DNA of 64,000 nt from Chitinophagaceae bacterium (GTDB taxonomy: Bacteria; Bacteroidota; Bacteroidia; Chitinophagales; Chitinophagaceae), in contig JAICZH010000001.1 in the NCBI GenBank assembly GCA_025933775.1, forward strand, positions 7,237 to 71,236. Direction: 5' to 3'. Below, piece after piece: positions 4,090 to 54,694 of the stretch. The notes below the pieces were generated by a model that had not been told where the DNA came from, ran no database searches, and saw only the letters and a program-made list of their open reading frames with translations. Both the position numbers and the translations under genes were made by a program. The number at the start of each line of letters is the position of its first letter. The first letter of the stretch is position 1.

Positions 4090-5142
4090 ATGACTGACTT
4101 TTTTTTGATAGCGATCATTGTACTTTTTTTTCTGATTATTTTTCAGATATCAAAGGCAAGTGAATATGTAAGCGTATTAAAGGGTGAAGAAAAATCCAGG
4201 AGACAAAATAATAAAGTAAATGGATTTTTTATGATTGCCTTTTTGGTAGCCGGACTTATAGGCGTATGGTATTGCAATAAACTTTATTATCCAAAAACTT
4301 TATTTCCACAGGGCGCCGCTTCCGCCGAAGGAAAAAATATTGATACCATGCTTTGGATAACTATTGCAGTAACTGGCGCAGTTTTTTTTGCAACGCAAAT
4401 ATTATTATTTTGGTTTTCATTTCGCTACCAGGAAAGTGATAAAAAGAAGCCGTTATATTTTACCCATAGTAATAAATTAGAATTGATCTGGACGGGGATT
4501 CCGGCAATTGTATTAACCGTATTAGTAGTGTTTGGTTTAAAGTATTGGTTTCAATTTACATCTGCTGCACCGAAAGGATCTCAACTCATTGAAATAACCG
4601 GCCATCAATTTGGATGGGAAATAAGATATCCGGGTAAAGATGGTATGTTAGGCAGAAAATATTATAAACTTACCGACCCTGCCAAAAACAATCCACTTGG
4701 GGTTGACTGGGCCGATGCGGCCAGCCATGATGATATTCATGTAACAACTACCATGCATGTTGTTGTAAACAGACCTGTAAAGCTGGTAATAAATTCGCAG
4801 GATGTAATACACGATGTAGGGCTACCTGCATTTCGTATGAAAATGGATGCCGTGCCGGGAACGCCCACTACCATGTGGTTTACGCCCATTTATACTACGG
4901 CGCAAATGAAAGAAAAAACCGGTAACCCTGATTTTACTTATGAAATTGCCTGCGATCAATTGTGTGGAAAGGGACATTTTGGTATGCGTGGAGTAATAAT
5001 CGTAGAAACACAAGCTGAGTTTGATGCATACATGGCAACTCAAAAACCCGAATATTATAAAGCTTTTCCCGAATTAGATCCGGATAAAAAACCGGCATCT
5101 GATTCAACTGCTAAAACAGTAGCACAAAATATTAAAAAATAA
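4090..5142 (+). CDS. coxB: Cytochrome c oxidase subunit II
   Basis: ELIWTGIP, DVIH, CuA motif CDQLCGKGHFGM. Confidence 0.95.
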   Translation: MTDFFLIAIIVLFFLIIFQISKASEYVSVLKGEEKSRRQNNKVNGFFMIAFLVAGLIGVWYCNKLYYPKTLFPQGAASAEGKNIDTMLWITIAVTGAVFFATQILLFWFSFRYQESDKKKPLYFTHSNKLELIWTGIPAIVLTVLVVFGLKYWFQFTSAAPKGSQLIEITGHQFGWEIRYPGKDGMLGRKYYKLTDPAKNNPLGVDWADAASHDDIHVTTTMHVVVNRPVKLVINSQDVIHDVGLPAFRMKMDAVPGTPTTMWFTPIYTTAQMKEKTGNPDFTYEIACDQLCGKGHFGMRGVIIVETQAEFDAYMATQKPEYYKAFPELDPDKKPASDSTAKTVAQNIKK

Positions 5143-5174
5143 ATTTCAGCCTTTGGCTATAAAAAAATATCATT

Positions 5175-6983
5175 ATGAATAACGAAGAAGTTTCGCATGA
5201 ACAATCGCTGGTGGTGCACGATTTAGGCCACGCTGCTCATGTGCATCATCACAAACAATCTTTTATTACAAAATATATTTTTAGCCAGGATCATAAAATT
5301 ATCTCCAGGCAATTTCTTATTACCGGAATAATATGGGCTTTGATTGGGGGCTTATTCTCAGTAATATTCCGTTTGCAATTAGGTTATCCCGATTCTACCT
5401 TTCCTTTTTTGCAGGATCTATTAGGCCATTGGGCGCCAGGCGGCAAGCTCGATCCTGAATTTTATTATGCATTAGTTACCATGCACGGAACTATTCTCGT
5501 ATTCTTTGTATTAACCGCAGGATTAAGCGGAACATTTGCCAACTTTTTAATTCCCTTGCAGGTTGGCGCAAGAGATATGGCGTCTCCGTTTTTAAATATG
5601 TTATCGTACTGGTTTTTCTTTTCTGCATCCATTGTTATGTTTTGTTCTTTGTTTTTACAAACGGGACCAGCAAGCGGCGGATGGACGATTTATCCCCCCT
5701 TAAGCGCTTTAGGTGATGCAATGAGTGGCTCCAAAACAGGTATGGATATGTGGCTTGCTTCTATGGGGCTGTTTATCATTTCTCAATTGCTTGCAGGTTT
5801 AAATTATATCACCACTATCCTTAACATGCGTACCAAAGGAATGAGCATGACCCGACTGCCATTAACCATCTGGTCTTTATTTTTTACGGCGGTTCTTGGA
5901 GTATTATCTTTCCCGGTATTATTATCAGCAGTTGTATTATTATTGTTTGATCGTCATCTGGGTACTAGTTTCTTTTTAAGCGATATTGTAATTGGGGGAA
6001 AAATTTTGCCAAATGAAGGAGGAAGCCCTATTTTATTTCAACACTTATTTTGGTTTTTGGGCCATCCTGAAGTGTATATTATTGCTTTACCGGCAATGGG
6101 TATCACTTCAGAAGTTATATCGGTCAATTCAAGAAAGCCCATCTTTGGATATATGGCAATGGTAGGATCCTTTTTTGCAATTGCTGCATTATCATTTATG
6201 GTATGGGCACATCACATGTTTGTAACGGGATTAAATCCTTTCCTGGGTTCATTCTTTGTATTGCTTACTTTATTAATTGCGGTGCCTTCGGCCATTAAAG
6301 TATTTAATTGGCTTACTACATTATGGAAAGGAAGCATTCGGTTTACACCGGGGATGCTTTTTGCAATTGGGTTTGTAAGTTTATTTATATCCGGGGGGCT
6401 TACCGGCATCTGGCTTGGTAATTCTTCATTAGATATTCATTTGCACGACACGTATTTTGTAGTAGCACACTTTCATCTGGTGATGGGCGTAGCATCTATG
6501 TTTGGAATGTTTGCGGGCGTGTATCATTGGTTCCCCAAAATGTTTGGAAGGTATATGAATAATACACTTTCTTATATCCATTTTTGGATAACGATTGCCG
6601 GGGCTTATTGCATCTTTTGGCCAATGCATTATGAAGGGTTAGCAGGCATGCCAAGGCGTTATTATGATTTTAGTAATTGGGAATCTTTCAAGATGTTTGG
6701 AGGGCTTAATGAATTTATAAGTGTGGTAGCTTTGATAGTTTTTGCAACTCAATTATTATTTATTTTCAATTTCTTTTATTCAATATTTAAAGGAAGAAAA
6801 GTTACCACTCCCAATCCCTGGGGCGCCACCACTTTGGAATGGACTACACCCATAAGGCCGGGACATGGAAACTGGATAAGTGAAATTCCTGAAGTGTATC
6901 GCTGGCCGTACGATTACGGCAAAGATGGAAGAGATTTTATTCCACAAACAGAGCCAGTGGGAGAAAATGAGAATCGTCATTAA
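5175..6983 (+). CDS. coxA: Cytochrome c oxidase subunit I (A1-type heme-copper oxidase)
   Basis: HGT, WFLGHPEVY, WAHHMF, HDTYFVVAHFH motifs. Confidence 0.97.
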   Translation: MNNEEVSHEQSLVVHDLGHAAHVHHHKQSFITKYIFSQDHKIISRQFLITGIIWALIGGLFSVIFRLQLGYPDSTFPFLQDLLGHWAPGGKLDPEFYYALVTMHGTILVFFVLTAGLSGTFANFLIPLQVGARDMASPFLNMLSYWFFFSASIVMFCSLFLQTGPASGGWTIYPPLSALGDAMSGSKTGMDMWLASMGLFIISQLLAGLNYITTILNMRTKGMSMTRLPLTIWSLFFTAVLGVLSFPVLLSAVVLLLFDRHLGTSFFLSDIVIGGKILPNEGGSPILFQHLFWFLGHPEVYIIALPAMGITSEVISVNSRKPIFGYMAMVGSFFAIAALSFMVWAHHMFVTGLNPFLGSFFVLLTLLIAVPSAIKVFNWLTTLWKGSIRFTPGMLFAIGFVSLFISGGLTGIWLGNSSLDIHLHDTYFVVAHFHLVMGVASMFGMFAGVYHWFPKMFGRYMNNTLSYIHFWITIAGAYCIFWPMHYEGLAGMPRRYYDFSNWESFKMFGGLNEFISVVALIVFATQLLFIFNFFYSIFKGRKVTTPNPWGATTLEWTTPIRPGHGNWISEIPEVYRWPYDYGKDGRDFIPQTEPVGENENRH

Positions 6984-32085: not shown

Positions 32086-33117
32086 ATGAATCATGAACGC
32101 ACAGAAATATCCACCCTTGGCGAGTTTGGCCTCATTGATCATCTCACAAAAAATAATGAAATAAAAAATGCATCTACCATTGTGAGCGTTGGTGATGATG
32201 CTGCTGTGCTTGATCATTTGGGAAAACAAATCGTGGTAACAACAGATATGCTGGTGGAAGGAATTCATTTTGATATGATGTACACCCCGCTAAAACATTT
32301 GGGTTATAAAAGTGTAATTGTAAACCTTAGCGATGTGTATGCCATGAATGCAATGCCGCAGCAAATAACGATGAGCATTGCATTCAGTAACCGTTTTAGT
32401 GTAGAAGCCCTGGATGAATTTTATGAAGGTGTATATGCTGCGTGTAACCGGTACAATGTTGATTTGATTGGTGGCGACACTACTTCTTCTCAAAAAGGAT
32501 TTATTATTTCTGTTACTGCAATTGGCGAAGTAGCGCCCGATAAATTTGTAAAAAGAAGTGGAGCAAAAATAAATGATCTCATTTGTGTGAGCGGGGACCT
32601 GGGCGCGGCATTTCTTGGATTAACTATTTTGGAAAGAGAGAAAAAAATTTTTCTTGAAACAAAAGGCGTGCAACCCAATTTGGAAAACCAGGATTACATC
32701 ATTGGCCGTTTTTTAAAACCCGAAGCAAGAAAAGATATTATTGAATTTTTTGCAACCAATGAAATAATTCCTACTTCGATGATTGACATAAGTGATGGAT
32801 TGAGCAGTGAATTATTGCACATTTGCAGGCAAAGTGAAAAAGGCTGTGTATTGTATGAAGAAAAAATTCCGGTGAATGACATGGCGCGCCAGTTTGCATA
32901 CAAATTAGAGATAGACCCTACCGCTTGTGCACTTAGCGGAGGCGAAGATTATGAATTACTTTTTACAATCAATCAAAAAGATTATGATAAGATTGTTGCC
33001 AAAAGCGATATAACTGTTGTTGGTCACATTACCGAAAAAGATGCAGGAGCATTATTAATTACAAAAGGTGGCAATAAACATAAGCTCACTGCGCAGGGAT
33101 GGAATGCGTTTGTATAA
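32086..33117 (+). CDS. thiL: Thiamine-monophosphate kinase
   Basis: LGEFGLI, VGDDAAV, NLSDVYAM, IGGDTT, IDISDGLSSEL, GGEDYELLFT. Confidence 0.96.
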   Translation: MNHERTEISTLGEFGLIDHLTKNNEIKNASTIVSVGDDAAVLDHLGKQIVVTTDMLVEGIHFDMMYTPLKHLGYKSVIVNLSDVYAMNAMPQQITMSIAFSNRFSVEALDEFYEGVYAACNRYNVDLIGGDTTSSQKGFIISVTAIGEVAPDKFVKRSGAKINDLICVSGDLGAAFLGLTILEREKKIFLETKGVQPNLENQDYIIGRFLKPEARKDIIEFFATNEIIPTSMIDISDGLSSELLHICRQSEKGCVLYEEKIPVNDMARQFAYKLEIDPTACALSGGEDYELLFTINQKDYDKIVAKSDITVVGHITEKDAGALLITKGGNKHKLTAQGWNAFV

Positions 33118-33379: not shown

Positions 33380-33387
33380 TATTTTTG
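33380..33387 (+). promoter_or_regulatory. -7 promoter element for tRNA-Pro
   Basis: TATTTTTG matches TAnnTTTG, 18 nt before the tRNA. Confidence 0.6.
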
Positions 33388-33405
33388 CAATGAATGTTTT
33401 TTTTG

Positions 33406-33479
33406 CGGGATGTAGCGCAGCCCGGTAGCGTGCTTCGTTCGGGACGAAGAGGCCGCTGGTTCGAATCCAGTCATCCCGA
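33406..33479 (+). tRNA. tRNA-Pro (CGG)
   Basis: Acceptor CGGGATG/CATCCCG, anticodon arm CTTCG-TTCGGGA-CGAAG, T loop TTCGAAT; CCA not encoded. Confidence 0.97.
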
Positions 33480-33537
33480 CTGACGTGTGTTTATTTTTTT
33501 TTAGAAACAATTTTAAAAAAATTATTGAATTTAATTA

Positions 33538-38392: not shown

Positions 38393-38869
38393 TTAGCTGA
38401 CATCTTTTGCTACCAACACACTGCGGTTAAAACTTTCTTCAAGTGAAATAAGTGTTTCGGTGCGTTCTATTCCTTTTATTTTTTGAAGGTCATCATGCAA
38501 AACGGTTCTAAGTTGATTAATATCTTTGCAAACTATTTCAATGTACATGCTATAATTCCCGGTGGTATAATTGAGTCGTACAATTTCAGGAATTTTTTCA
38601 AGCTCTTTTGCAACCGAATCGTACATGGAACTTTTTTCGAGAAAGATGCCGACGAATGCAGTAATATCGTAACCCAATTGTTTTAAATTTACCCGTAATT
38701 TTTTACCTTTAACGATGCCGAACTCTTCAAGTTTTTTTATGCGAACATGAATCGTTCCGCCGCTTACAAAAAGTTTTTTGCCCAGTTCGGCATAAGGAGT
38801 TTCGGCATTTTGCAGCATCTCCTGGATGATCTGCAAATCGAGTTTGTCAAGATTTAACTTTGAAGCCAT
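38393..38869 (-). CDS. Lrp/AsnC-family transcriptional regulator
   Basis: LDKLDLQII, TIHVRIKKLEEFGIVKG, TTGNYS. Confidence 0.95.
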   Translation of the reverse strand: MASKLNLDKLDLQIIQEMLQNAETPYAELGKKLFVSGGTIHVRIKKLEEFGIVKGKKLRVNLKQLGYDITAFVGIFLEKSSMYDSVAKELEKIPEIVRLNYTTGNYSMYIEIVCKDINQLRTVLHDDLQKIKGIERTETLISLEESFNRSVLVAKDVS

Positions 38870-38976
38870 AAAATTTATTGATTTAAATATTTTTCATAAA
38901 AATAATAATTTTATTGAACATTTTCTATATTTTAAATAATTTATTTAAAATATTTTTTTTATAAAGTGATAAATAT

Positions 38977-38997
38977 TAGATTTGTGTTATAAATTTG
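38977..38997 (+). promoter_or_regulatory. Tandem -7 promoter elements upstream of the tRNA-like gene
   Basis: TAGATTTG (38977-38984) and TAAATTTG (38990-38997) both match TAnnTTTG. Confidence 0.6.
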
Positions 38998-39022
38998 CTG
39001 CAGCAGATAAGTTCTTAAAAAT

Positions 39023-39192
39023 TGTGGGGTGATGAAATTTTTGGCAGACATGCCCTCTTGTCTCGGGGGTGAGGATAACAGGATAAACATAGCATAGAGC
39101 CGTTTCGATGAAAATCGGGACGACCAGGGTCGACCACTGAACTTTGTGCTACGGCTAACTGCCTCGTGGAGGTTCGACCCCTCCCCCTACAG
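39023..39192 (+). tRNA. Atypical tRNA-like gene: Asp (GUC) anticodon and 98-nt structured variable arm
   Basis: Acceptor TGTGGGG/CCCTACA + G discriminator; D stem ATG/CAT; anticodon arm CCCTC-TTGTCTC-GGGGG; T arm GGAGG-TTCGACC-CCTCC; 170 nt total. Confidence 0.75.
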
Positions 39193-39540
39193 CAAATTAT
39201 AAGCTAACTTGTTTTAAAGTTAATAGTTTTTGTCAAATTTCATTAACCCCCTTTCTTTTATATTATTATTTATTTCTATCTCTTCTTACTTATAATTTGT
39301 ATTTTGCAAATATGTGAAGTAAATGATAACTATCGAATACAACATTATTTCCCTCTATTTATCCGTCCGTATTGGAAATAAAATACAAAACTCAAACTAA
39401 TAATAATTATCAAAGTTCCTGTTCGTTCACAAGTCCATAAATTGAGAGTTAGCTATAACTGATCAAACCAAAATTGATGGGATATATTTTAGCAAATAAG
39501 TTTTTACGGAAAATCAGATCTTGGGCTGCTGTCATAAATT

Positions 39541-39581: not shown

Positions 39582-40016
39582 ATGCGTACCGATAAATTTC
39601 TTTCTTCAAAATATACGGGCAGTAAAGCGATGACTCAGCTTGACATTCATTCCGCAAATGCAACCGGCTTCGGCGCTGCAGCCGATGATTACATGGAAAG
39701 AGGAATTGACCTTAATGAAGAGCTCATCCGAAACAAACCGGCAACTTTTTTTATGCGGGTAAGCAGCGATGCCATGAAAGAAGCAGGAATTTATAAAGGC
39801 GATGTAGTAATCGTTGACCGCTCCATAAAAGCAACGAATGGGAAAGTAATTATTGCCATGTTAAATGGAGATATGTTGATCCGTCGTTTTGAAAAAACAA
39901 ATAATAATATCAGGCTGGTTATTGATTCAAATAAATTGTCGCCGATAAATATTGACGCTACTTGCGAAGATTTCGCTATCTGGGGAGTAGTAACTTATGT
40001 GATTCATACGCCATGA
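39582..40016 (+). CDS. umuD: UmuD-like S24 family protein, catalytic dyad substituted
   Basis: TGFGAAADDY, LIRNKPATFFMRV, GDVVIVDRS, WGVVTYVIH; SDAM for GDSM and LIRR for TVKK. Confidence 0.85.
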   Translation: MRTDKFLSSKYTGSKAMTQLDIHSANATGFGAAADDYMERGIDLNEELIRNKPATFFMRVSSDAMKEAGIYKGDVVIVDRSIKATNGKVIIAMLNGDMLIRRFEKTNNNIRLVIDSNKLSPINIDATCEDFAIWGVVTYVIHTP

Positions 40017-40060
40017 CCCTATCCCCTGAAGAGAATAATTTTAAATGTATTCAATTATGA
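40013..40060 (+). other. 15-codon bridging ORF between umuD and umuC
   Basis: MTLSPEENNFKCIQL*; starts in an ATGA overlap with the umuD stop and ends in an ATGA overlap with umuC ATG 40057. Confidence 0.4.
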
Positions 40061-40122
40061 TTACTGACAGCCAACCAGATAAGACAGCTCTGAAATTCCC
40101 CCTTCAGGGGGTTAGGGGGTTT
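40016..40122. repeat. Inverted REP-like doublet at the umuD/umuC junction
   Basis: Degenerate reverse copy ACCCTATCCCCTGAAGAG (40016-40033) and forward copy TTCCCCCTTCAGGGGGTTAGGGGG (40096-40119). Confidence 0.65.
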
Positions 40123-41400
40123 AAAGCAATTGTTGATTGCAATAGTTTTTACTGTTCGTGCGAACGGGTTTTCAGGCCCGACCTGAAAAATAGGCCTGTA
40201 GTGGTTTTGAGCAATAATGATGGTTGTATTATTTCGCGAAGTGATGAAGCAAAGCTCCTCGGCGTGGAAATGGCAGGCCCGTATTTTAAAGCAAAAAATT
40301 TAATTGAAAAAAATAAAGTAGCTACGTTTTCATCCAACTACAATTTATACGGCGATATGAGCCGGCGGGTAATGGACACTTTAAAAATATTAATTGGCGA
40401 AAATAATGTAGAGGTGTATTCTGTAGATGAATGTTTTTTAGATGTAAGCATGATTGAGAAAAATTTGCTTTATGCGTGCGCATTGCAAATGAGAGAAACA
40501 GTAGAGCAATGGACGGGAGTGTCGGTTTCGGTAGGAATAGCGGCAACAAAAACTTTAGCAAAAATTGCCAATCATCTTGCTAAAAAAAATAAAGCAGCAA
40601 CAAAATGTATAGCAACAATTATTACCGAAGATGATGTAAGAAGCGTATTAAAAAAAACTCACGTAAAAGAAATATGGGGCGTAGGAACAGCTTATGCTGA
40701 AAAATTAATTAACTGGGGAATTACTACTGCATGGGACCTTTGCAATATGCCCGAAGAATGGATACATAAGCATATGGGAGGAGTGGTGGGCGTAAGGCTT
40801 GTGAAAGAATTAAAAGGAATACCGTGCATTGAGATGAAAGATGAATTGAAAGTAAAAAAAATGATTGCTACCACCCGTATGTTTGGCAAAAATATTACAG
40901 AGCTGGATGATATTAAAGAGGCCATTGCCACCTATGCCACAAGGGCAGCAGAAAAATTAAGAAGGCAAAAATGTGCTGCTTCTGTGGTAAGTATTTTTAT
41001 AGTGGCGAAAGAAGAAACCCATTCTGTAAATTTTAGCCATGGCACTACATTAAGCACTCATACTATTCTGCCTTTTGCCACATCTGTTACCAACGAACTT
41101 ATTGCGCCTGCGCTGCAATTGGCAGAACAAATATTTAAACCGGGCCGCGAATATAAAAAAGCAGGTGTGATGTTAAGCGGCCTTGTTCCGGATACGTCTA
41201 TTCAAAGTAATTTATTTACACCTTTATCTGAAAACAATAAACGTTTTTTAATGGAAACCCTTGACAATATTAATTTCAGCATGAGAAATGACATAGTAAA
41301 ATTTGCATCCTCCGGGCTTAGCCGCGATTGGAAAATGAGAAAAGAATTTCGTTCTCCGAGATATACTTCAAGATGGAATGAATTAAAACAAGTAGGATGA
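40045..41400 (+). CDS. umuC: Y-family DNA polymerase (UmuC-like)
   Basis: IVDCNSFYCSCE, VLSNNDGC, YSVDE, VSVGIAATKTLAKIAN, SPRYTSRWNEL; start 40045 or 40057. Confidence 0.93.
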   Translation: MYSIMITDSQPDKTALKFPLQGVRGFKAIVDCNSFYCSCERVFRPDLKNRPVVVLSNNDGCIISRSDEAKLLGVEMAGPYFKAKNLIEKNKVATFSSNYNLYGDMSRRVMDTLKILIGENNVEVYSVDECFLDVSMIEKNLLYACALQMRETVEQWTGVSVSVGIAATKTLAKIANHLAKKNKAATKCIATIITEDDVRSVLKKTHVKEIWGVGTAYAEKLINWGITTAWDLCNMPEEWIHKHMGGVVGVRLVKELKGIPCIEMKDELKVKKMIATTRMFGKNITELDDIKEAIATYATRAAEKLRRQKCAASVVSIFIVAKEETHSVNFSHGTTLSTHTILPFATSVTNELIAPALQLAEQIFKPGREYKKAGVMLSGLVPDTSIQSNLFTPLSENNKRFLMETLDNINFSMRNDIVKFASSGLSRDWKMRKEFRSPRYTSRWNELKQVG

Positions 41401-41465
41401 ACACAAGTTAAAAACAATTTAAAAACTGTGCATAAAAAACTAAATCAGAGCCAGTATCTTTACAA

Positions 41466-44400
41466 ATGTCCCGCAATAATTATCAAGTAGAAAAGTTTAA
41501 TAAAGAATACAGTCGCTTAAACGAAGAACAGAAAAAAGCAGTTGATACCATCGAAGGTCCGGTAATGGTTATCGCCGGGCCCGGCACCGGCAAAACACAA
41601 ATTCTGGCAGCACGCATTGGAAAAATTTTATTGGAAACGGATACACTTCCGCAAAATATTTTATGCCTTACTTATACTGACGCGGGCTCGCTTGCCATGA
41701 GAAAAAGATTGCTGCACTTCATCGGGCCTGATGCGTATAAAGTAAACATTTATACTTTTCATGCTTTTTGCAACGACATCATTCAGGATAATTTATCTCT
41801 CTTTGAAAAAACTTCTTTGAACCCTATTTCCGAACTGGAAAAAATTCAATTGTATAAAATACTTATTGATCGTCTTCCAAAAAATAATCTTTTAAAAAGA
41901 TATCGCGGCGATGTGTATTACGAAATAAATAATCTCGCTCATTTATTTTCAGCAATGAAACGGGAAGGCTGGTCGCCGGCATTTATTACAAGCCGTATTG
42001 ACGTATATCTTGAAAGAATAAAAGACGATGAAAATTTTAAATATAAACGATCAGGAAAAGATTTTAATAAAGGCGATTACAATCCCGGGTATGAAGTGGA
42101 AATAAATAAGATGGAAAAGCTTTGCGCAGCAGTGAATGAGTTTAATAATTTTCAGGCATTAATGAAAGAGCGCAATCTTTATGATTTTGATGATATGATA
42201 AATTGGGTGATAAATGTGTTTAAAGAAAATAAAAATATTCTTGCCAATTACCAGGAAAGATTTCAATACATACTTGTGGATGAATACCAGGATACGAGCG
42301 GAACGCAAAACCAAATCGTTCAATTGCTGATTAGTTTTTGGGAATCGCCAAACATTTTTGTTGTTGGCGATGACGATCAAAGCATCTTTCGTTTTCAGGG
42401 AGCCAATATTGAAAACATGGAAAACTTTGCTTTCGGTTATGAAGATCTTTTGAAGATTGTGCTTACTGATAATTATCGTTCTACTCAACCAATACTCGAT
42501 GTTTCAAAATCATTGATTGATAAAAATAAGGAAAGGCTTATTAATAAATTTGAAGGGCTTACCAAAAATCTTATTTCGGCAAATGAATTGGTAAAACATT
42601 TAAAACATCAGCCGGTAATTGTAGAATATAATACTTCTAAAGATGAAATGGCGGACATTGTCAACAAAATTGAAAGCCTTGTTGAGAGCGGGGTTGAGCC
42701 TGCAAGAATTTCCGTTATCTACAAAGAAAATGTGTATGGCGAACAACTTATAAGATATTTCAGGCTTAAAAACATTCCAGTTTACTCCAGGCGAAGCATT
42801 GATATTTTGCAAGATCCTTTTGCAAAAAAAATATTGCAAATTTTGCGCTACCTCGCTGCGGAGCATGATATTCCTTACGGCGGCGATGAATTACTTTTTG
42901 AAATAATGCATTTTGATTTTTATACAATTCCTCCTATTGAAATTGCAAAACTAACGGTAGCCGTAAACGAAAAAAAACATAGCGGCCAATCCACTTCAAT
43001 AAGAAAATTATTGTACGATAAAGCCAATGCAGTTGCAAAAGATTTATTTGATACAGGAATAAATCCCGCTATGAAAGGATTCAGTAAAAGAATAGAGCAG
43101 TTGATTGCTGATGTGAGCAACTGTACTTTACAAAAGCTTTTTGAAAATATTATAACTAATGCAGGTGTATTAAATTATATCATGAAGAACGATGAAAAAA
43201 TTCGTTTGCTGCAAATACTCACTGCACTCTTTGATTTTATAAAAGAAGAAACATCCAGAAATCCTTCGCTCGATATACAAGGGCTTGTTGGTGTTTTTGA
43301 ATTAATGTATAACGAAAAAATTCCTTTGCCGCTCATGCAGGTTTCAGGAAGTGATAAAGGAGTAAATCTCTTAACGGCTCATAGTTCCAAAGGATTGGAA
43401 TTTGAATATGTTTTCATCACCGGCGTTAATGCTTATTTGTGGGAAAAGAAACCGAAGAGAAGTAATGGATATAAGTTGCCCGATACATTATTTGCGAGTA
43501 TGCCTACCGGTGATGCTGATGAAGAATTGCGCCGTTTATTTTATGTAGCGCTCACGAGAGCCGAAAAAAATTTACAGGTTTCATACATAAGATTAAGGCC
43601 CGATGGTAAAGAAGCAGAACATTCCATGTTCATTGCAGAGATAGTGCTGGCAAGGGATTTGGCCATTCAGCGCATTGCTTTGCCCGAAGAAGAATTGATG
43701 GAATTTGAAATGCTCAACTTCAGCGAGCTGGCTCCTGAAATAGAAAAAACCGAAGAAGAATTTATAAATTCTTTGCTCGATAAATATGTAATGAATGTAA
43801 CATCGCTTAATAATTATTTGAATTGCCCGTTAGAATTTTATTTTAAAAATTTATTGAGGATTCCCTCCGGAAAATCGGAGAATACTGAGTTTGGAAGCGC
43901 CATTCATTTTGCTGTTCAAAAACTTTTTGAAGACATGCAAAAAAATGATGATCAAAAATTTCCTGCAAAAGAAATTATGATTGGTTATTTTAATTGGTAT
44001 ATGAACCGGCATCGTGAAAATTTTACTAAAGAAGCTTTTGCAAGAAGAATGGAATATGGTGAAAAAGTATTGGCAGATTATTATGAAAATTATATTCATA
44101 CATGGAATAAAATAGTTTCGGTAGAAAGAAATATAAAAAATGTAATTGTAAACGGCGTGCCATTAAAAGGCAAGATTGATAAGCTGGAATTTAATGGCAA
44201 AGAAGTGAATGTGATTGATTATAAAACCGGTAATGTAACCAGTAAATATACCAACCAAAAACTAACCCCGCCAAATGAAGATAATCCTAATGGTGGCGAT
44301 TACTGGCGGCAGGCCGTGTTTTATAAAATGCTTGTTGATAATTTAGATGGCAAAGGATGGCAGGTTATCAGCACCGAATTTGATTTTATTGAACCTGATA

Positions 44401-44615
44401 AAAGAAAAAATTATCAAAAAAGAAAAATTTATATAACGCCCGAAGATATTGCGATTGTTACCGAACAACTAACAATGGTTTGGAAAAAAATTCAGGCGCA
44501 TGATTTTTATACCGGCTGCGGAAAACAAGATTGCCACTGGTGCAACTTTGTAAAAGATAATAAGCTTGAAATTGCTTTGCACGAAATTTCAGAAAATGCT
44601 GAAGCAGAGATTTAA
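41466..44615 (+). CDS. UvrD/Rep-family helicase fused to a PD-(D/E)xK nuclease domain
   Basis: AGPGTGKT, VDEYQD, VGDDDQSIFRFQGA, EELRRLFYVALTRAE; C-terminal GKIDKL...IDYKTG; Cys in LNCP and GCGKQDCHWC. Confidence 0.92.
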   Translation: MSRNNYQVEKFNKEYSRLNEEQKKAVDTIEGPVMVIAGPGTGKTQILAARIGKILLETDTLPQNILCLTYTDAGSLAMRKRLLHFIGPDAYKVNIYTFHAFCNDIIQDNLSLFEKTSLNPISELEKIQLYKILIDRLPKNNLLKRYRGDVYYEINNLAHLFSAMKREGWSPAFITSRIDVYLERIKDDENFKYKRSGKDFNKGDYNPGYEVEINKMEKLCAAVNEFNNFQALMKERNLYDFDDMINWVINVFKENKNILANYQERFQYILVDEYQDTSGTQNQIVQLLISFWESPNIFVVGDDDQSIFRFQGANIENMENFAFGYEDLLKIVLTDNYRSTQPILDVSKSLIDKNKERLINKFEGLTKNLISANELVKHLKHQPVIVEYNTSKDEMADIVNKIESLVESGVEPARISVIYKENVYGEQLIRYFRLKNIPVYSRRSIDILQDPFAKKILQILRYLAAEHDIPYGGDELLFEIMHFDFYTIPPIEIAKLTVAVNEKKHSGQSTSIRKLLYDKANAVAKDLFDTGINPAMKGFSKRIEQLIADVSNCTLQKLFENIITNAGVLNYIMKNDEKIRLLQILTALFDFIKEETSRNPSLDIQGLVGVFELMYNEKIPLPLMQVSGSDKGVNLLTAHSSKGLEFEYVFITGVNAYLWEKKPKRSNGYKLPDTLFASMPTGDADEELRRLFYVALTRAEKNLQVSYIRLRPDGKEAEHSMFIAEIVLARDLAIQRIALPEEELMEFEMLNFSELAPEIEKTEEEFINSLLDKYVMNVTSLNNYLNCPLEFYFKNLLRIPSGKSENTEFGSAIHFAVQKLFEDMQKNDDQKFPAKEIMIGYFNWYMNRHRENFTKEAFARRMEYGEKVLADYYENYIHTWNKIVSVERNIKNVIVNGVPLKGKIDKLEFNGKEVNVIDYKTGNVTSKYTNQKLTPPNEDNPNGGDYWRQAVFYKMLVDNLDGKGWQVISTEFDFIEPDKRKNYQKRKIYITPEDIAIVTEQLTMVWKKIQAHDFYTGCGKQDCHWCNFVKDNKLEIALHEISENAEAEI

Positions 44616-46896: not shown

Positions 46897-47991
46897 TTGA
46901 GTAATAGTTCAACAGAAAATAAACCAATAATAGGATTTACCTGCGGCGATCTTAATGGAATTGGAATTGAACTGATATTAAAAACACTGTCCGATAATCG
47001 TATCCTCGATTTTTGCACCCCCGTAATTTTTGCAAGCAACAAGGTTATCAATTTTTATAGAAAAATTATTGGCGATATTAATTTTAGTTTTACCAGCATT
47101 AAAGACCTTAGCAAATTAAACCCGCGCCAGGCAAATATTTTCAATTGCTGGGAAGAAGAAGTGGCCATTAACCCTGCCACATTAAATGAAACCGGCGGCC
47201 AGTATGCTGTGAAAAGTTTGTTGGCAGCAACCCTGGCTTTAAAAGAAAAAAAAATTAATGCTTTAGTTACTGCACCCCTTCATAAAAAAAATGTACAAAG
47301 CTCAAATTTTTCATACACGGGCCATACTCCTTTTCTCAAAAATTTTTTTGAAGTAAAAGATGTATTGATGCTGCTTACTGCAGAAAATTTAAGAGTAGGA
47401 TTGGTTACTGAACACTTGCCTGTAAAAGAAATTGTGAACCATATTACAAAAGAAAATATTATCAGCAAGCTTTCTATATTATATGCTTCATTAAAAAAAG
47501 ATTTTAATATTGATAAACCTAAAATTGCAGTGCTTGCTTTAAACCCACATGCAGGCGATGAAGGATTAATAGGCAATGAAGAAGAAGAAATTATTAAACC
47601 CGCCATTAAGGAAGCCAGGCAAAAAAATATATTAGCAATGGGGCCTTTTAGCGCAGATGCTTTTTTTGCAAGAGGCCAGTACAATAAATTTGATGCTGTT
47701 TTAGCCATGTATCACGACCAGGGGTTAATTCCATTTAAATCATTGGCATTGGGCGATGGAGTAAATTTTACGGCAGGATTACCTGCCGTGCGCACCAGTC
47801 CCGATCATGGAACTGCTTTCGACATTGCCGGCAAAAATAAAGCCGACCCTTCTTCATTTAGCGCTGCAATATTTACCGCTATTGAAATTTTAAATAACCA
47901 AAAACGATATGAAGATAATCGGCGTAACCCTATAAATAAGCTGAGCAATAATATAGTTGCAAGTGCAGTTGATGAAAAAATAACTGAATAA
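46897..47991 (+). CDS. pdxA: 4-hydroxythreonine-4-phosphate dehydrogenase
   Basis: GDLNGIGIE, GHT, LNPHAGD, AMYHDQGLIPFK, RTSPDHGTAFDIAG. Confidence 0.96.
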   Translation: MSNSSTENKPIIGFTCGDLNGIGIELILKTLSDNRILDFCTPVIFASNKVINFYRKIIGDINFSFTSIKDLSKLNPRQANIFNCWEEEVAINPATLNETGGQYAVKSLLAATLALKEKKINALVTAPLHKKNVQSSNFSYTGHTPFLKNFFEVKDVLMLLTAENLRVGLVTEHLPVKEIVNHITKENIISKLSILYASLKKDFNIDKPKIAVLALNPHAGDEGLIGNEEEEIIKPAIKEARQKNILAMGPFSADAFFARGQYNKFDAVLAMYHDQGLIPFKSLALGDGVNFTAGLPAVRTSPDHGTAFDIAGKNKADPSSFSAAIFTAIEILNNQKRYEDNRRNPINKLSNNIVASAVDEKITE

Positions 47992-52588: not shown

Positions 52589-54523
52589 TTAATTATTTCC
52601 TTCAATTAATTTATTCACTTCTATTGAAGCCATATCACGTATCGCTTCTGCGATATGATTTGCGTCTATGCCTATTTCATTATACAATTCTTTCGGAGTT
52701 CCATGTTCTATAACAATATCAGGTATTCCTAATATTTTCGTATAGGCGTGGTAGTTATGTTCCGCCATAAATTCTAAAATGGCAGAACCAAATCCGCCTT
52801 TTACTGTTCCGTCTTCTACAGTAATTATTTTAGAATAATTTTTAAAAACTTCATGAAGTATTTTTTCATCCAAAGGTTTTACAAAACGCATATCATAATG
52901 CGCCGGATTGATGCCTTCATTTTTTACTTCTCGTATGGCTGCGGCAGCAAAATTTCCCGGATGGCCATAAGAAAGAATCGCAATCTCTTCACCATCTTTT
53001 AATTTTCTTCCGGTACCGATTTTTATTTCTTTCATTTCTGTTTTCCAATCGGCCTTTACCGCTTCGCCGCGTGGGTAACGGATTACAAAAGGATTTTTTA
53101 TTTTTTCTAATTGAGATGTAAACATAAGATTGCGCAATTCACTTTCATTCATCGGAGCGCTTACAATCATGTTGGGTATGCAACGCATGTACGCAATATC
53201 ATAAGCGCCGTGATGCGTTGGGCCATCTTCGCCCACAAGCCCTGCCCTATCTAAGCAAAACACTACTGGTAAATTTTGTATCGCAACATCGTGCACTACC
53301 TGGTCGTAACCGCGCTGCATAAACGAAGAATAAATATTGCAGAAAACTTTCATTCCTTGCGTGGCAAGCCCTGCGCTTAGTGTAACGGCGTGTTGCTCGC
53401 AAATGCCCACATCAAAAGCACGATCGGGCATTTGCTCCATCATATACTTTAATGAACTTCCACTCGGCATCGCAGGAGTAATGCCCATAATCTTTTTATT
53501 TTTTTCTGCCAGTTCAATAATAGTATATCCAAATACATCCTGGTATTTCGGCGGTTGCGGAAGATCAAATTTTTTCTTATAAATTTCGCCGGTTATTTTA
53601 TCAAACAATCCCGGTGCATGCCATTTGGTTTGATCTTTTTCTGCCAGCTCATACCCTTTTCCTTTTATTGTTTTTATATGCAAAAGTTTTGGACCAGGAA
53701 TATCTTTAATGTCTTTTAAAGTATCAACCAACTTTGTAATATTATGTCCGTCAATTGGCCCAAAGTACCGTAGATTAAGGGCTTCAAACAAATTACTGCT
53801 GTTGCTTACAATTCCTTTTAAGCTGGCTTCAATTTTTGAAACAATTTTTCTTGATAATGTTTTCGCAGGAAGTTTGCCTAACGCTTTCCAGAAATCATCG
53901 CGAAATTTATTATACGAATGAGAAGTAGTAATATCAGTAAGATATTCTTTTAATGCACCCACATTCGGGTCAATGCTCATGCAGTTATCATTTAGAATAA
54001 TAAGCAAATTACTTTTTTCAATGCCGGCATGATTCAATGCTTCGAAAGCCATTCCCGCCGTCATTGCGCCATCCCCGATGATGGCAACGTGCTGCCGGTT
54101 AATTTCACCTTTATAATGTGAAGCCATCGCCATTCCCAGCGCAGCAGAAATAGAAGTAGATGAATGGCCCACACCGAAAGTGTCATATTCGCTTTCTGCT
54201 CTTTTAGGAAAACCGCTAAGCCCTTTATATTTTCTGTTGGTTTTAAAATTATCTTTTCTGCCAGTAAGAATTTTATGACCATAGGCCTGGTGACCCACAT
54301 CCCACACCAATTGATCGTAAGGAGTATTGAATACATAATGCAATGCAACGGTAAGTTCCACTACGCCGAGGCTGGCTCCAAAGTGGCCGCCATACACGCT
54401 TACAACATCTACAATATATTGGCGCAATTCTTTACACACCTGGTGCAGTTGCTCCTTGCTAAGTTTTTTTAAATCGTCCGGGCTATTTATATTTTGCAAT
54501 AATTTGCCGGGTGTAATTTCCAT
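52589..54523 (-). CDS. dxs: 1-deoxy-D-xylulose-5-phosphate synthase
   Basis: WDVGHQAY, GHSSTSISA, GDGAMTAG, LNDN, DVGICEQH, DRAGLVGEDGPTHHG; ATG 54523 preferred. Confidence 0.97.
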   Translation of the reverse strand: MEITPGKLLQNINSPDDLKKLSKEQLHQVCKELRQYIVDVVSVYGGHFGASLGVVELTVALHYVFNTPYDQLVWDVGHQAYGHKILTGRKDNFKTNRKYKGLSGFPKRAESEYDTFGVGHSSTSISAALGMAMASHYKGEINRQHVAIIGDGAMTAGMAFEALNHAGIEKSNLLIILNDNCMSIDPNVGALKEYLTDITTSHSYNKFRDDFWKALGKLPAKTLSRKIVSKIEASLKGIVSNSSNLFEALNLRYFGPIDGHNITKLVDTLKDIKDIPGPKLLHIKTIKGKGYELAEKDQTKWHAPGLFDKITGEIYKKKFDLPQPPKYQDVFGYTIIELAEKNKKIMGITPAMPSGSSLKYMMEQMPDRAFDVGICEQHAVTLSAGLATQGMKVFCNIYSSFMQRGYDQVVHDVAIQNLPVVFCLDRAGLVGEDGPTHHGAYDIAYMRCIPNMIVSAPMNESELRNLMFTSQLEKIKNPFVIRYPRGEAVKADWKTEMKEIKIGTGRKLKDGEEIAILSYGHPGNFAAAAIREVKNEGINPAHYDMRFVKPLDEKILHEVFKNYSKIITVEDGTVKGGFGSAILEFMAEHNYHAYTKILGIPDIVIEHGTPKELYNEIGIDANHIAEAIRDMASIEVNKLIEGNN

Positions 54524-54694
54524 TTTGTATTTTTTATTTGGCAAAGTTAAGTTATTGGATTTTTATGGATTTTAAACAGTTTTAGAAAATATAAGATTTT
54601 AAAAATTAAGAAATCTGAAAATGTGCGGAAAGATTTCTATAATATTTTATATACGAAAAAAAGAATACAATAGTATTTGAAATAAGATAAATAT

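Follow-up and report, generated by a model that had tools for sequence, protein, structure and literature searches.

The RNA that we report here is encoded by a 170-nucleotide (nt) cloverleaf gene at 39023-39192 on the forward strand of a 64,000-nt stretch, henceforth the window, of contig JAICZH010000001.1 from a Chitinophagaceae bacterium (assembly GCA_025933775.1, positions 7,237 to 71,236). Several described tRNAs and tRNA-like RNAs come close to it. The class II tRNAs (tRNA-Leu, Ser and Tyr; especially tRNA-Leu): these share with it the cloverleaf, a 3-base-pair (bp) D stem with a loop of the type ..AA..GG.AGA, a canonical T loop, maturation to tRNA ends and a helical variable arm that leaves the body between positions 45 and 48. 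Their variable arms, however, are 11-21 nt long, whereas that of the RNA measures 40-135 nt, with an AUAAA/CUAA loop and optional branches; unlike tRNA-Leu, it has G73 in place of A73 and an Asp-type anticodon loop with U37, and is missed by tRNA models. Canonical tRNA-Asp (GUC): the two have C/U32, U33, G34, U35, C36, C38, G73 and G2-C71 in common, which make up most of the identity set of aspartyl-tRNA synthetase (AspRS), but where tRNA-Asp has A37, G1-C72 and G10, the RNA has U37, U1-A72 and A10, besides a class-II D arm and the giant variable arm. tRNA-Asn and tRNA-Gln as substrates of GatCAB, as in the tRNA-dependent Asn synthesis of Deinococcus, Thermus, Bdellovibrio and S. aureus: these likewise combine U1-A72 with G73, and the RNA occurs in lineages that keep gatCAB and is linked to an AsnC-type regulator. 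Its anticodon, however, is GUC and not GUU, and such a use would need a discriminating AspRS and a product kept off the ribosome.

Other described systems also resemble the RNA in part. tRNA-Sec: this is an enlarged class-II-like tRNA with G73 that acts as a scaffold for amino-acid conversion and avoids the normal use of EF-Tu; the RNA departs from it by a 7/5 rather than an 8/5 acceptor/T fold, another anticodon, a much larger arm and a context without SelA, SelB or SECIS. tmRNA: it is also abundant, has a tRNA-like acceptor and T arm, is carried by phages too and is matured by RNase P and the CCA enzyme, as is proposed here for the RNA; the latter, in contrast, has a full D stem and anticodon arm, U3-A70 rather than G3-U70, and neither a tag frame nor pseudoknots. 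The bacterial Y RNA YrlA and the tRNA mimics (mascRNA, viral tRNA-like structures): these have a tRNA-like fold outside decoding, but YrlA ends at the would-be anticodon stem and is linked to rsr, whereas the ends of the RNA form an acceptor stem and its neighbours are asnC and variable genes. The staphylococcal non-proteinogenic tRNA-Gly of cell-wall synthesis: this is an extra isoacceptor that avoids the ribosome and donates its amino acid elsewhere; it is of normal size and found by standard tools, whereas the RNA has an added domain and the AsnC linkage.

From U1 to the discriminator G73 the gene in the window reads UGUGGGG-UG-AUG-[AAAUUUUUGGCAGA]-CAU-G-CCCUC-[UUGUCUC]-GGGGG-UG-[95-nt arm]-GU-GGAGG-[UUCGACC]-CCUCC-CCCUACA-G, and it scores 198 bits with R1, a covariance model of the family. 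It had first been noticed in the letters alone as the gene of a tRNA-shaped RNA, the anticodon loop of which is of the Asp type, the D arm class II and the variable arm structured, and had been read either as an aminoacylatable tRNA with an added domain or as a tRNA mimic; all the coordinates and pairings that this original prediction named are present in the sequence, and the gene is backed by the covariation and homologues described below. Standard detection fails on it. In the window, ARAGORN in tRNA mode and Rfam 15 (at the gathering score and at E<=10) make no call at 39023-39192, the tmRNA and intron modes of ARAGORN do not call the gene, and Rfam 15 gives no tmRNA or YrlA match; Rfam 15 and tRNA detection are equally negative on a 113-nt natural mini-version, on other versions of 108-125 nt and on six loci from other orders. 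ARAGORN calls a tRNA-Asp only once the arm is deleted and the threshold lowered. Neither these comparisons nor a search for a description of this RNA in Rfam and the searched literature yielded a match to a characterised family. The giant-arm tRNA-like RNA is a tRNA-derived RNA family overlooked by standard tRNA and RNA-family finders.

Homologues of 108-208 nt were recovered at more than 300 Bacteroidota loci, in Chitinophagaceae, Cyclobacteriaceae, Cytophagales, Saprospiraceae and Cryomorphaceae, and also on phage contigs. Those of the Chitinophagaceae were located by a 24-mer covering the T arm and 3' acceptor strand, which matches at least 119 species-level genomes, nearly all from this family, with the preceding 145-208 nt homologous in every one. 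A second search used the phage-type loop (C32), leaving out the Chitinophagaceae form, and matched at least 120 genomes; the matches listed are from Saprospiraceae, Cyclobacteriaceae (Cyclobacterium, Belliella, Algoriphagus, Mariniradius), Cytophagaceae, Flammeovirgaceae, Roseivirgaceae and Cryomorphaceae, as well as from Ohtaekwangia, Marinoscillum, Persicobacter (five tandem copies) and Portibacter. A search of the first 100 of these other-order loci with R1 gave 140 copies, 108-199 nt in length. None of the 240 genome matches listed, a pattern-based sample, belongs to the Flavobacteriaceae or Bacteroidales.

The single sequence folds only modestly better than its shuffles (minimum free energy z = -2.3), and the structural case therefore rests on comparative evidence. 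Across 99 unique homologues, 98% of cells are paired under the cloverleaf-plus-arm structure and 15 pairs have compensatory changes; none of 500 shuffles reached the observed covariation values, and slid controls gave at most 0.081 against the 0.204 observed. Once paralogues are added, double changes are seen at 24 of the 42 pairs, spread over all nine helices including the acceptor, D and T stems; the tandem paralogues found by R1 contribute, for instance, a compensatory acceptor UGUGGAG/UUCCACA and a T stem GAAGG/CCUUC. Homologues with covarying stems, which the original prediction had proposed to look for, thus exist in hundreds of genomes. The alternative pairing AGCCGT/ACGGCT that it had set against the 10-bp stem of the variable arm did not hold up: it can form in just five of the 99 homologues and is not conserved.

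The nucleotides of the tRNA tertiary interactions (U8, A14, G18G19, T54-Psi55-C56 and A58) are kept, with U8G9 in 301 of 305 unique sequences, the set on which the family signature was computed. The 5' end UGU and the 3' end ACAG recur in 303-304 of the 305, which gives U1-A72, G2-C71, U3-A70 and G73. The anticodon loop is YYGUCUC in 289 (UUGUCUC in 164, CUGUCUC in 108 and UCGUCUC in 17), and CUGUCUC equals the canonical tRNA-Asp loop CUGUCAC with A37 changed to U. Position 37 is always a pyrimidine, U in all members, and never a purine, and position 33 is C in 17 of the 305 (about 6%) and U in the remainder: the combination of U33 and a purine at 37 that marks an ordinary tRNA is not seen. 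The T loop UUCGANN and the GG of the D loop are conserved. The D arm, UG-AUG-AAA..GGCAGA-CAU-G, is that of canonical tRNA-Leu genes, and the RNA therefore descends from a class II tRNA.

The variable arm spans 40-135 nt across the family and 95-98 nt in the window. Its internal loop AUAAA/CUAA is conserved in every order sampled (CUAA stands on the 3' side in nearly all of the 305 sequences, facing an AUAAA-type motif on the 5' side in the alignments), and the distal hairpins are optional modules. Among the latter a GGUYGACCA hairpin is present in 229 members and absent in 76, and is hence an optional module and not essential. The GUC loop and the GAC of this hairpin are both invariant, so that a loop-loop pairing between them carries no covariation signal. 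At three loci (L109, L281, L308) the arm is reduced to a mini arm of about 45 nt, and other variants have extra hairpins. Three lineages (L017, L045, L060) have in addition a GNRA-capped hairpin of 8-10 nt (UGCGCAAGCA, GGCGUAAGCC) inserted in the D loop directly before G18G19.

Several loci hold more than one copy. Tandem arrays consist of 2-5 copies at a spacing of 170-340 nt, with compensatory acceptor and T-stem changes in the second copies; downstream tandem copies are found in L002, L014, L016, L023, L024, L026, L028, L033, L037, L062, L065, L077, L078 and L095, and arrays also at L460 6437-7247 and L493 3688-4630; Persicobacter and Flammeovirga have five near-identical copies. In several genera, copies without the 5' acceptor strand and D stem lie directly downstream of intact ones, with a common start junction ..GGCAGCGACCC.. 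(L273:1983-2171, L282:1954-2141, L283:1736-1896 and 1961-2145, L293:1929-2106, L277:2020-2112, L060:2151-2296 and 2337-2495, L079:2258-2397); in some the arm is replaced by CCCGA..UCGGG hairpins. These 5'-truncated copies may be decayed duplicates or a distinct truncated form.

Conserved 31-mers of the RNA are present in many soil, rhizosphere, plant, ice and freshwater metatranscriptomes. When assembled RNA contigs (not reads) are mapped on the window as word depth, the depth peaks at 95,654 (X33), 17,090 (X31), 8,612 (X25) and 129,388-160,202 (X42) and is restricted to 39024-39193: it starts at 39023-39027, stops at 39192-39193 and is zero upstream of 39023 and past 39195, and adapter sequence abuts 39025 and 39027. 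These data confirm that the RNA is real, very highly expressed and accumulates with its ends at the predicted acceptor ends, so that the transcript to be expected from the original prediction is there in abundance. One low-depth contig extends into the 3' trailer, and precursors therefore exist. The contigs also cross the variable arm at high depth, which rules out that the arm is a removed intron; a lone 65-nt 'skip' corresponds to naturally shorter homologues.

The 3' end points to tRNA-like maturation. The base after G73 is C in all 197 gene copies (121/121 and 76/76), but CC is templated in only seven of them, and contigs from two runs, with at least two arm variants, end exactly in ...ACAG-CC (reference L009, which happens to encode GCCA); C75 is therefore added post-transcriptionally, and the CCA-adding enzyme probably treats the RNA as a tRNA. 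One such contig runs straight into the Illumina adapter, where A76 is indistinguishable from the adapter's own A. The 5' end is presumably formed by RNase P, in the context of a conserved leader: across 130 upstream regions A-4 is kept in 113, A-2 in 124 and a pyrimidine at -1 in 128. The RNA is transcribed from its own promoter, the boxes of which are predicted. Both TAnnTTTG boxes that had been claimed upstream of the gene are found there, and 98 of 130 unique upstream regions of homologues have such boxes at a distance of 25-70 nt, though the motif is not enriched across the window (76 found against 115 expected) and is weak evidence taken alone. Homologues have clear GC-rich terminators 5-15 nt past the gene end.

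Two further elements flank the gene in some members. About half of the copies at 130 loci, internal tandem copies included, are preceded at 11-14 nt by a GTTCTT box, which may be a processing signal. In Cytophagales copies a conserved element ..UUUUGGGUUAAUGUUGUUUAUUUGA.. stands in the 3' trailer, 20-60 nt past the 3' end of the RNA and ahead of the terminator (L443, L446, L447, L449, L454, L456, L458, L464, L466, L467, L476); it is absent from the window's family.

The most constant neighbour of the RNA gene is a divergent gene for a regulator of the Lrp/AsnC family (Table), the homologues of which JGI annotates as 'regulator for asnA, asnC and gidA'. The asnC gene of E. coli is transcribed divergently from asnA, which its product activates at low asparagine. 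The regulator is divergent from the RNA, at 140-350 nt, in 104 of the 113 pattern-derived Chitinophagaceae loci, with varying genes downstream. The reverse search, starting from the regulator, gave 80 Chitinophagaceae loci, and R1 found the RNA in 74 of them, with Ginsengibacter, Hanamia, Ferruginibacter, Puia, Niastella, Filimonas, Flavitalea and Lacibacter among the genera represented in this set of loci. In other orders an AsnC homologue with 43-61% protein identity is divergently adjacent in 61 of 120 loci among the matches listed. This adjacency is kept across orders while other synteny is lost, which argues for a functional link between RNA and regulator. A perfect inverted repeat between the divergent promoters is a candidate AsnC operator, for which similar AT-rich palindromes at other loci offer weak support. 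Approximate queries for asnA and asnB found neither beside the RNA in the sampled locus flanks, the only part of the genomes covered. By AsnC identity (97%) the closest relative is an uncultured soil Chitinophagaceae metagenome-assembled genome (L241).

Phages carry the RNA as one of their tRNAs, beside a normal tRNA-Asp. In IMG/VR a 23-nt pattern over the D and anticodon arms gave four phage contigs, and a looser pattern, the mostly chance matches of which were filtered, at least nine more (at least 13 in total). These copies are 141-171 nt long and score 101-113 bits with R1; they retain UGU...ACA-G-C and the loop YYGUCUC and their acceptor stems vary in a compensatory way, for example UGUAAGG/CCUUACA. 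L322 is a true phage contig, to judge by its DNA polymerase and endolysin genes; in L324 the RNA gene comes after an array of tRNA-Leu-Glu-Thr-Asp(GUC)-Ser; in L421 and L422 its neighbours on the two sides are tRNA-Met and tRNA-Thr, at distances of 25 and 5 nt, and a tmRNA belongs to the same array. There is no asnC near the phage copies. That the RNA is purely a phage or mobile element was rejected, given the conserved chromosomal locus in more than 300 genomes.

The phage contigs contain other unusual RNA genes. Upstream of its copy, L322 has two further oversized tRNA-like genes (4370-4706, minus strand), neither of them called by ARAGORN. Their acceptor is AGUCAGG/CCUGACU with A as discriminator, the D arm is of the tRNA-Leu type, and the anticodon arms are unusual and contain large inserts. 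L323:5575-5661 is a phage tRNA with the anticodon UCA, labelled SeC by ARAGORN, which may be a UGA suppressor. The tmRNA at L421:2331-2708, inside the phage tRNA array, has the tag GEEKSSFTFEDALAFVGADYAVAA.

The RNA exists alongside an ordinary tRNA-Asp. Canonical tRNA-Asp (loop CUGUCAC, G1-C72) is present in Chitinophagaceae and, as the original prediction had left to be checked, as a separate gene in the same genomes: the Parafilimonas isolate run X49 contains 100% of the Parafilimonas terrae RNA locus together with a 76.8-kb contig with an identical canonical tRNA-Asp, and Pseudoflavitalea rhizosphaerae has the giant-arm RNA and the canonical tRNA-Asp in one assembly (L199, L316). With both in the same isolate genome and the same assembly, the RNA as the sole tRNA-Asp of its organism was rejected. 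The E. coli tRNA-Asp identity set consists of G34, U35, C36, C38, G73 and G2-C71, plus G10. The claim that all Asp identity elements are present stands for the first six, which are invariant in the RNA, and falls at position 10, which is A. Recognition by AspRS is the best explanation for the invariance of these six, and the RNA is probably aspartylated.

The acceptor end of the RNA, U1-A72 with G73, follows the pattern of tRNA-Asn and tRNA-Gln and not that of tRNA-Asp, the first pair of which, G1-C72, is an antideterminant for GatCAB. A U1-A72 first pair, which bacterial GatCAB requires (PMC4206432), is present in the RNA in nearly every sequence. Chitinophaga and Niastella keep gatCAB despite having asnS and glnS, and are without asnA; Cyclobacterium, Belliella, Owenweeksia and Fluviicola also have gatCAB, and the listed Bacteroidales and Flavobacteriaceae genomes are without it (PMC4206432). 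RNA and gatCAB may thus be co-distributed, going by a genus-level match taken from the published table, with the RNA not seen in Flavobacteriaceae or Bacteroidales among the matches listed.

The invariant pyrimidine 37 speaks against routine decoding, as do the variants with C33, the insertions in the D loop and the size of the arm. It is quite possible, if a little short of an even chance, that the RNA is a charged aminoacyl carrier acting off the ribosome. A more specific form of this carrier would be a dedicated non-translational tRNA that serves as a scaffold for asparagine biosynthesis via AspRS and GatCAB under AsnC control, which we advance tentatively, as possible but somewhat unlikely in its entirety. 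In such a scheme the RNA would be matured by RNase P and the CCA-adding enzyme, after which AspRS would load Asp by reading G34, U35, C36, C38, G73 and G2-C71. U37, the C33 variants, the D-loop hairpins and the large variable arm would keep the charged RNA from EF-Tu and the ribosome, and GatCAB, which rejects the G1-C72 of tRNA-Asp, would accept it via U1-A72 and amidate Asp to Asn. The AsnC-type regulator would turn the RNA gene on when asparagine is low; the RNA would thereby take the place beside asnC that asnA holds in E. coli.

Several points weigh against the carrier and the scaffold. AspRS, a class II enzyme, approaches its tRNA from the variable-loop side, where the large arm may clash, and the RNA has A10 instead of the G10 of the E. 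coli identity set. GatCAB also reads the size of the D loop through the tail domain of GatB, and the D loop of the RNA is large, at least 14 nt. The contigs show C75 only and not A76. About half of the other-order loci listed and all phage copies are without an adjacent asnC. Phylogeny and the pattern-based sampling confound any co-distribution with gatCAB. Finally, asnB homologues and a tRNA-Asn with U1-A72 are present in Chitinophaga and Niastella (PMC4206432), so that a dedicated carrier is not strictly needed.

Among the alternatives, the RNA could be an uncharged tRNA mimic or regulator that uses its Asp-type loop and acceptor end to bind AspRS, GatCAB, TGT, a stringent factor or another tRNA-binding protein, and that titrates or signals at a level set by AsnC. 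The features that speak against ordinary decoding (U37, the C33 variants, the D-loop insertions and the failure of tRNA detectors) would all suit such a role, as would the AsnC linkage and the very high abundance, which fits a titrating RNA; but the invariant acceptor end, the templated C74, the added C75 and the position in phage tRNA arrays are what is expected of a chargeable tRNA. We regard the mimic as unlikely. Less likely again is a true elongator, a tRNA-Asp isoacceptor reading GAY codons on the ribosome, in which the big arm would be a passenger or would stabilise the molecule. The invariant GUC anticodon, the multi-copy tandem arrays, the phage tRNA arrays and the tRNA-like maturation all agree with it, and are set against the invariant pyrimidine 37, C33 in about 6% of sequences and the hairpin insertions in the D loop. 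Moreover, normal tRNA-Asp coexists with the RNA in the hosts and in phage L324, a branched arm of 40-135 nt would probably clash on the ribosome, and a specific AsnC linkage is unexpected for a housekeeping isoacceptor.

A third alternative takes the class-II body at face value: SerRS would charge the RNA with serine, as it does tRNA-Sec, with conversion or transfer of the serine to follow. What SerRS reads is the long arm and G73, regardless of the anticodon, and a change of A73 to G shifts Leu identity towards Ser in some systems; the body derived from tRNA-Leu, the invariant G73 and G2-C71 and the ever-present variable-arm stem would all fit. This leaves the invariant tRNA-Asp loop (G34, U35, C36, C38) unexplained, however, the variable-arm stem has just 4 bp before its bulge and no serine-related genes are linked. 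Charging with serine is improbable. Highly improbable is a decoy or replacement RNA in phage-host conflict, in which a defence directed at tRNAs, such as an anticodon nuclease, would attack those with a GUC loop, and hosts and phages alike would have a variant to absorb or resist it: at least 13 phage contigs have their own copies, and phage L322 has further giant tRNA-like genes, but conservation over several orders at a single locus beside asnC, with no defence genes nearby, points to housekeeping metabolism. A decayed pseudo-tRNA or chance fold, to which the want of an ARAGORN or Rfam call might be ascribed, is refuted by the covariation in all helices, the more than 300 conserved homologues and the very high expression, and can be dismissed.

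If confirmed, these results describe a large RNA family with very high expression, present in several orders of Bacteroidota and in their phages, which goes wholly unnoticed in standard annotation. They imply that a tRNA body can gain a structured domain of 40-135 nt and a non-decoding anticodon loop and yet be matured like a tRNA. The AsnC linkage makes it testable whether some bacteria use a dedicated off-ribosome tRNA to convert an amino acid or to signal; were the asparagine-scaffold proposal true, it would explain why Chitinophagaceae retain GatCAB despite AsnRS and GlnRS, and could explain the copies in the tRNA sets of AT-rich phages, which are heavy users of Asn codons. The family also bears on what phage 'tRNA' arrays actually contain, and with its covariance model an RNA that ranks among the most abundant unassigned ones of the metatranscriptomes examined (soil, freshwater and ice) would be annotated.

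Table. Features of the RNA locus, in coordinates of the window
Feature	Position	Strand	Details
AsnC-type (Lrp/AsnC family) regulator gene	38393-38869	-	divergent from the RNA gene; Pfam match; NCBIfam AsnC 166.6 bits over full length, Lrp 53.7
Perfect 13+13 inverted repeat	38927-38953		ATATTTTAAATAA-T-TTATTTAAAATAT; between the divergent promoters; candidate AsnC operator
Predicted Bacteroidota-type -7 promoter boxes, TAnnTTTG	38977-38984 and 38990-38997	+	TAGATTTG and TAAATTTG
5' leader	39011-39022	+	GTTCTT box; conserved A-4, A-2, Y-1; presumed RNase P context
Acceptor stem, 7 bp	39023-39029 / 39185-39191	+	UGUGGGG / CCCUACA; discriminator G39192; pairs 1-3 (UGU/ACA) invariant in the family; compensatory changes at pairs 4, 6 and 7
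D arm, class-II (tRNA-Leu) type	39032-39051	+	3-bp stem AUG/CAU; 14-nt loop with G18G19; covariation ACG/CGU
Anticodon-like arm	39053-39069	+	stem CCCUC/GGGGG; loop UUGUCUC 39058-39064; GUC 39060-39062; stem variants CCUCC/GGAGG and CCUUC/GAAGG
Variable-arm domain	39071-39165	+	base stem GAGG/CCUC; 4-nt bulge; 3-bp stem; internal loop GAUAAAC/GGCUAA
Variable arm, distal part	39090-39099/39142-39151; 39101-39122; 39125-39139	+	10-bp helix; GAAA-capped hairpin; hairpin with loop GGUCGACCA
T arm	39168-39184	+	GGAGG-UUCGACC-CCUCC; canonical T loop UUCGANN; G50-C64 to A-U in paralogues
Templated C74	39193	+	next genomic base is A, whereas RNA contigs carry C75
Possible weak AT-rich terminator hairpin and T run	39204-39231	+	read from the sequence; no call by the terminator scan

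The remainder of the window has its own gene content. Downstream of the RNA gene, 39582-44615 encodes an S24 peptidase (UmuD-like), a Y-family polymerase (UmuC/ImuB-like) and a 1049-aa protein with a UvrD helicase and a PD-(D/E)XK nuclease, which look like an SOS-type mutagenesis and repair cluster and are not syntenic with the RNA in other genomes. Housekeeping genes elsewhere (4090-6983; 52589-54544; 46897-47991; 32086-33117) encode cytochrome c oxidase subunits II and I, Dxs, PdxA and ThiL. The only gene of the window called by standard tRNA tools is a tRNA-Pro(CGG) at 33406-33480, with a TAnnTTTG box that ends 19 nt upstream of it (region 33380-33480).

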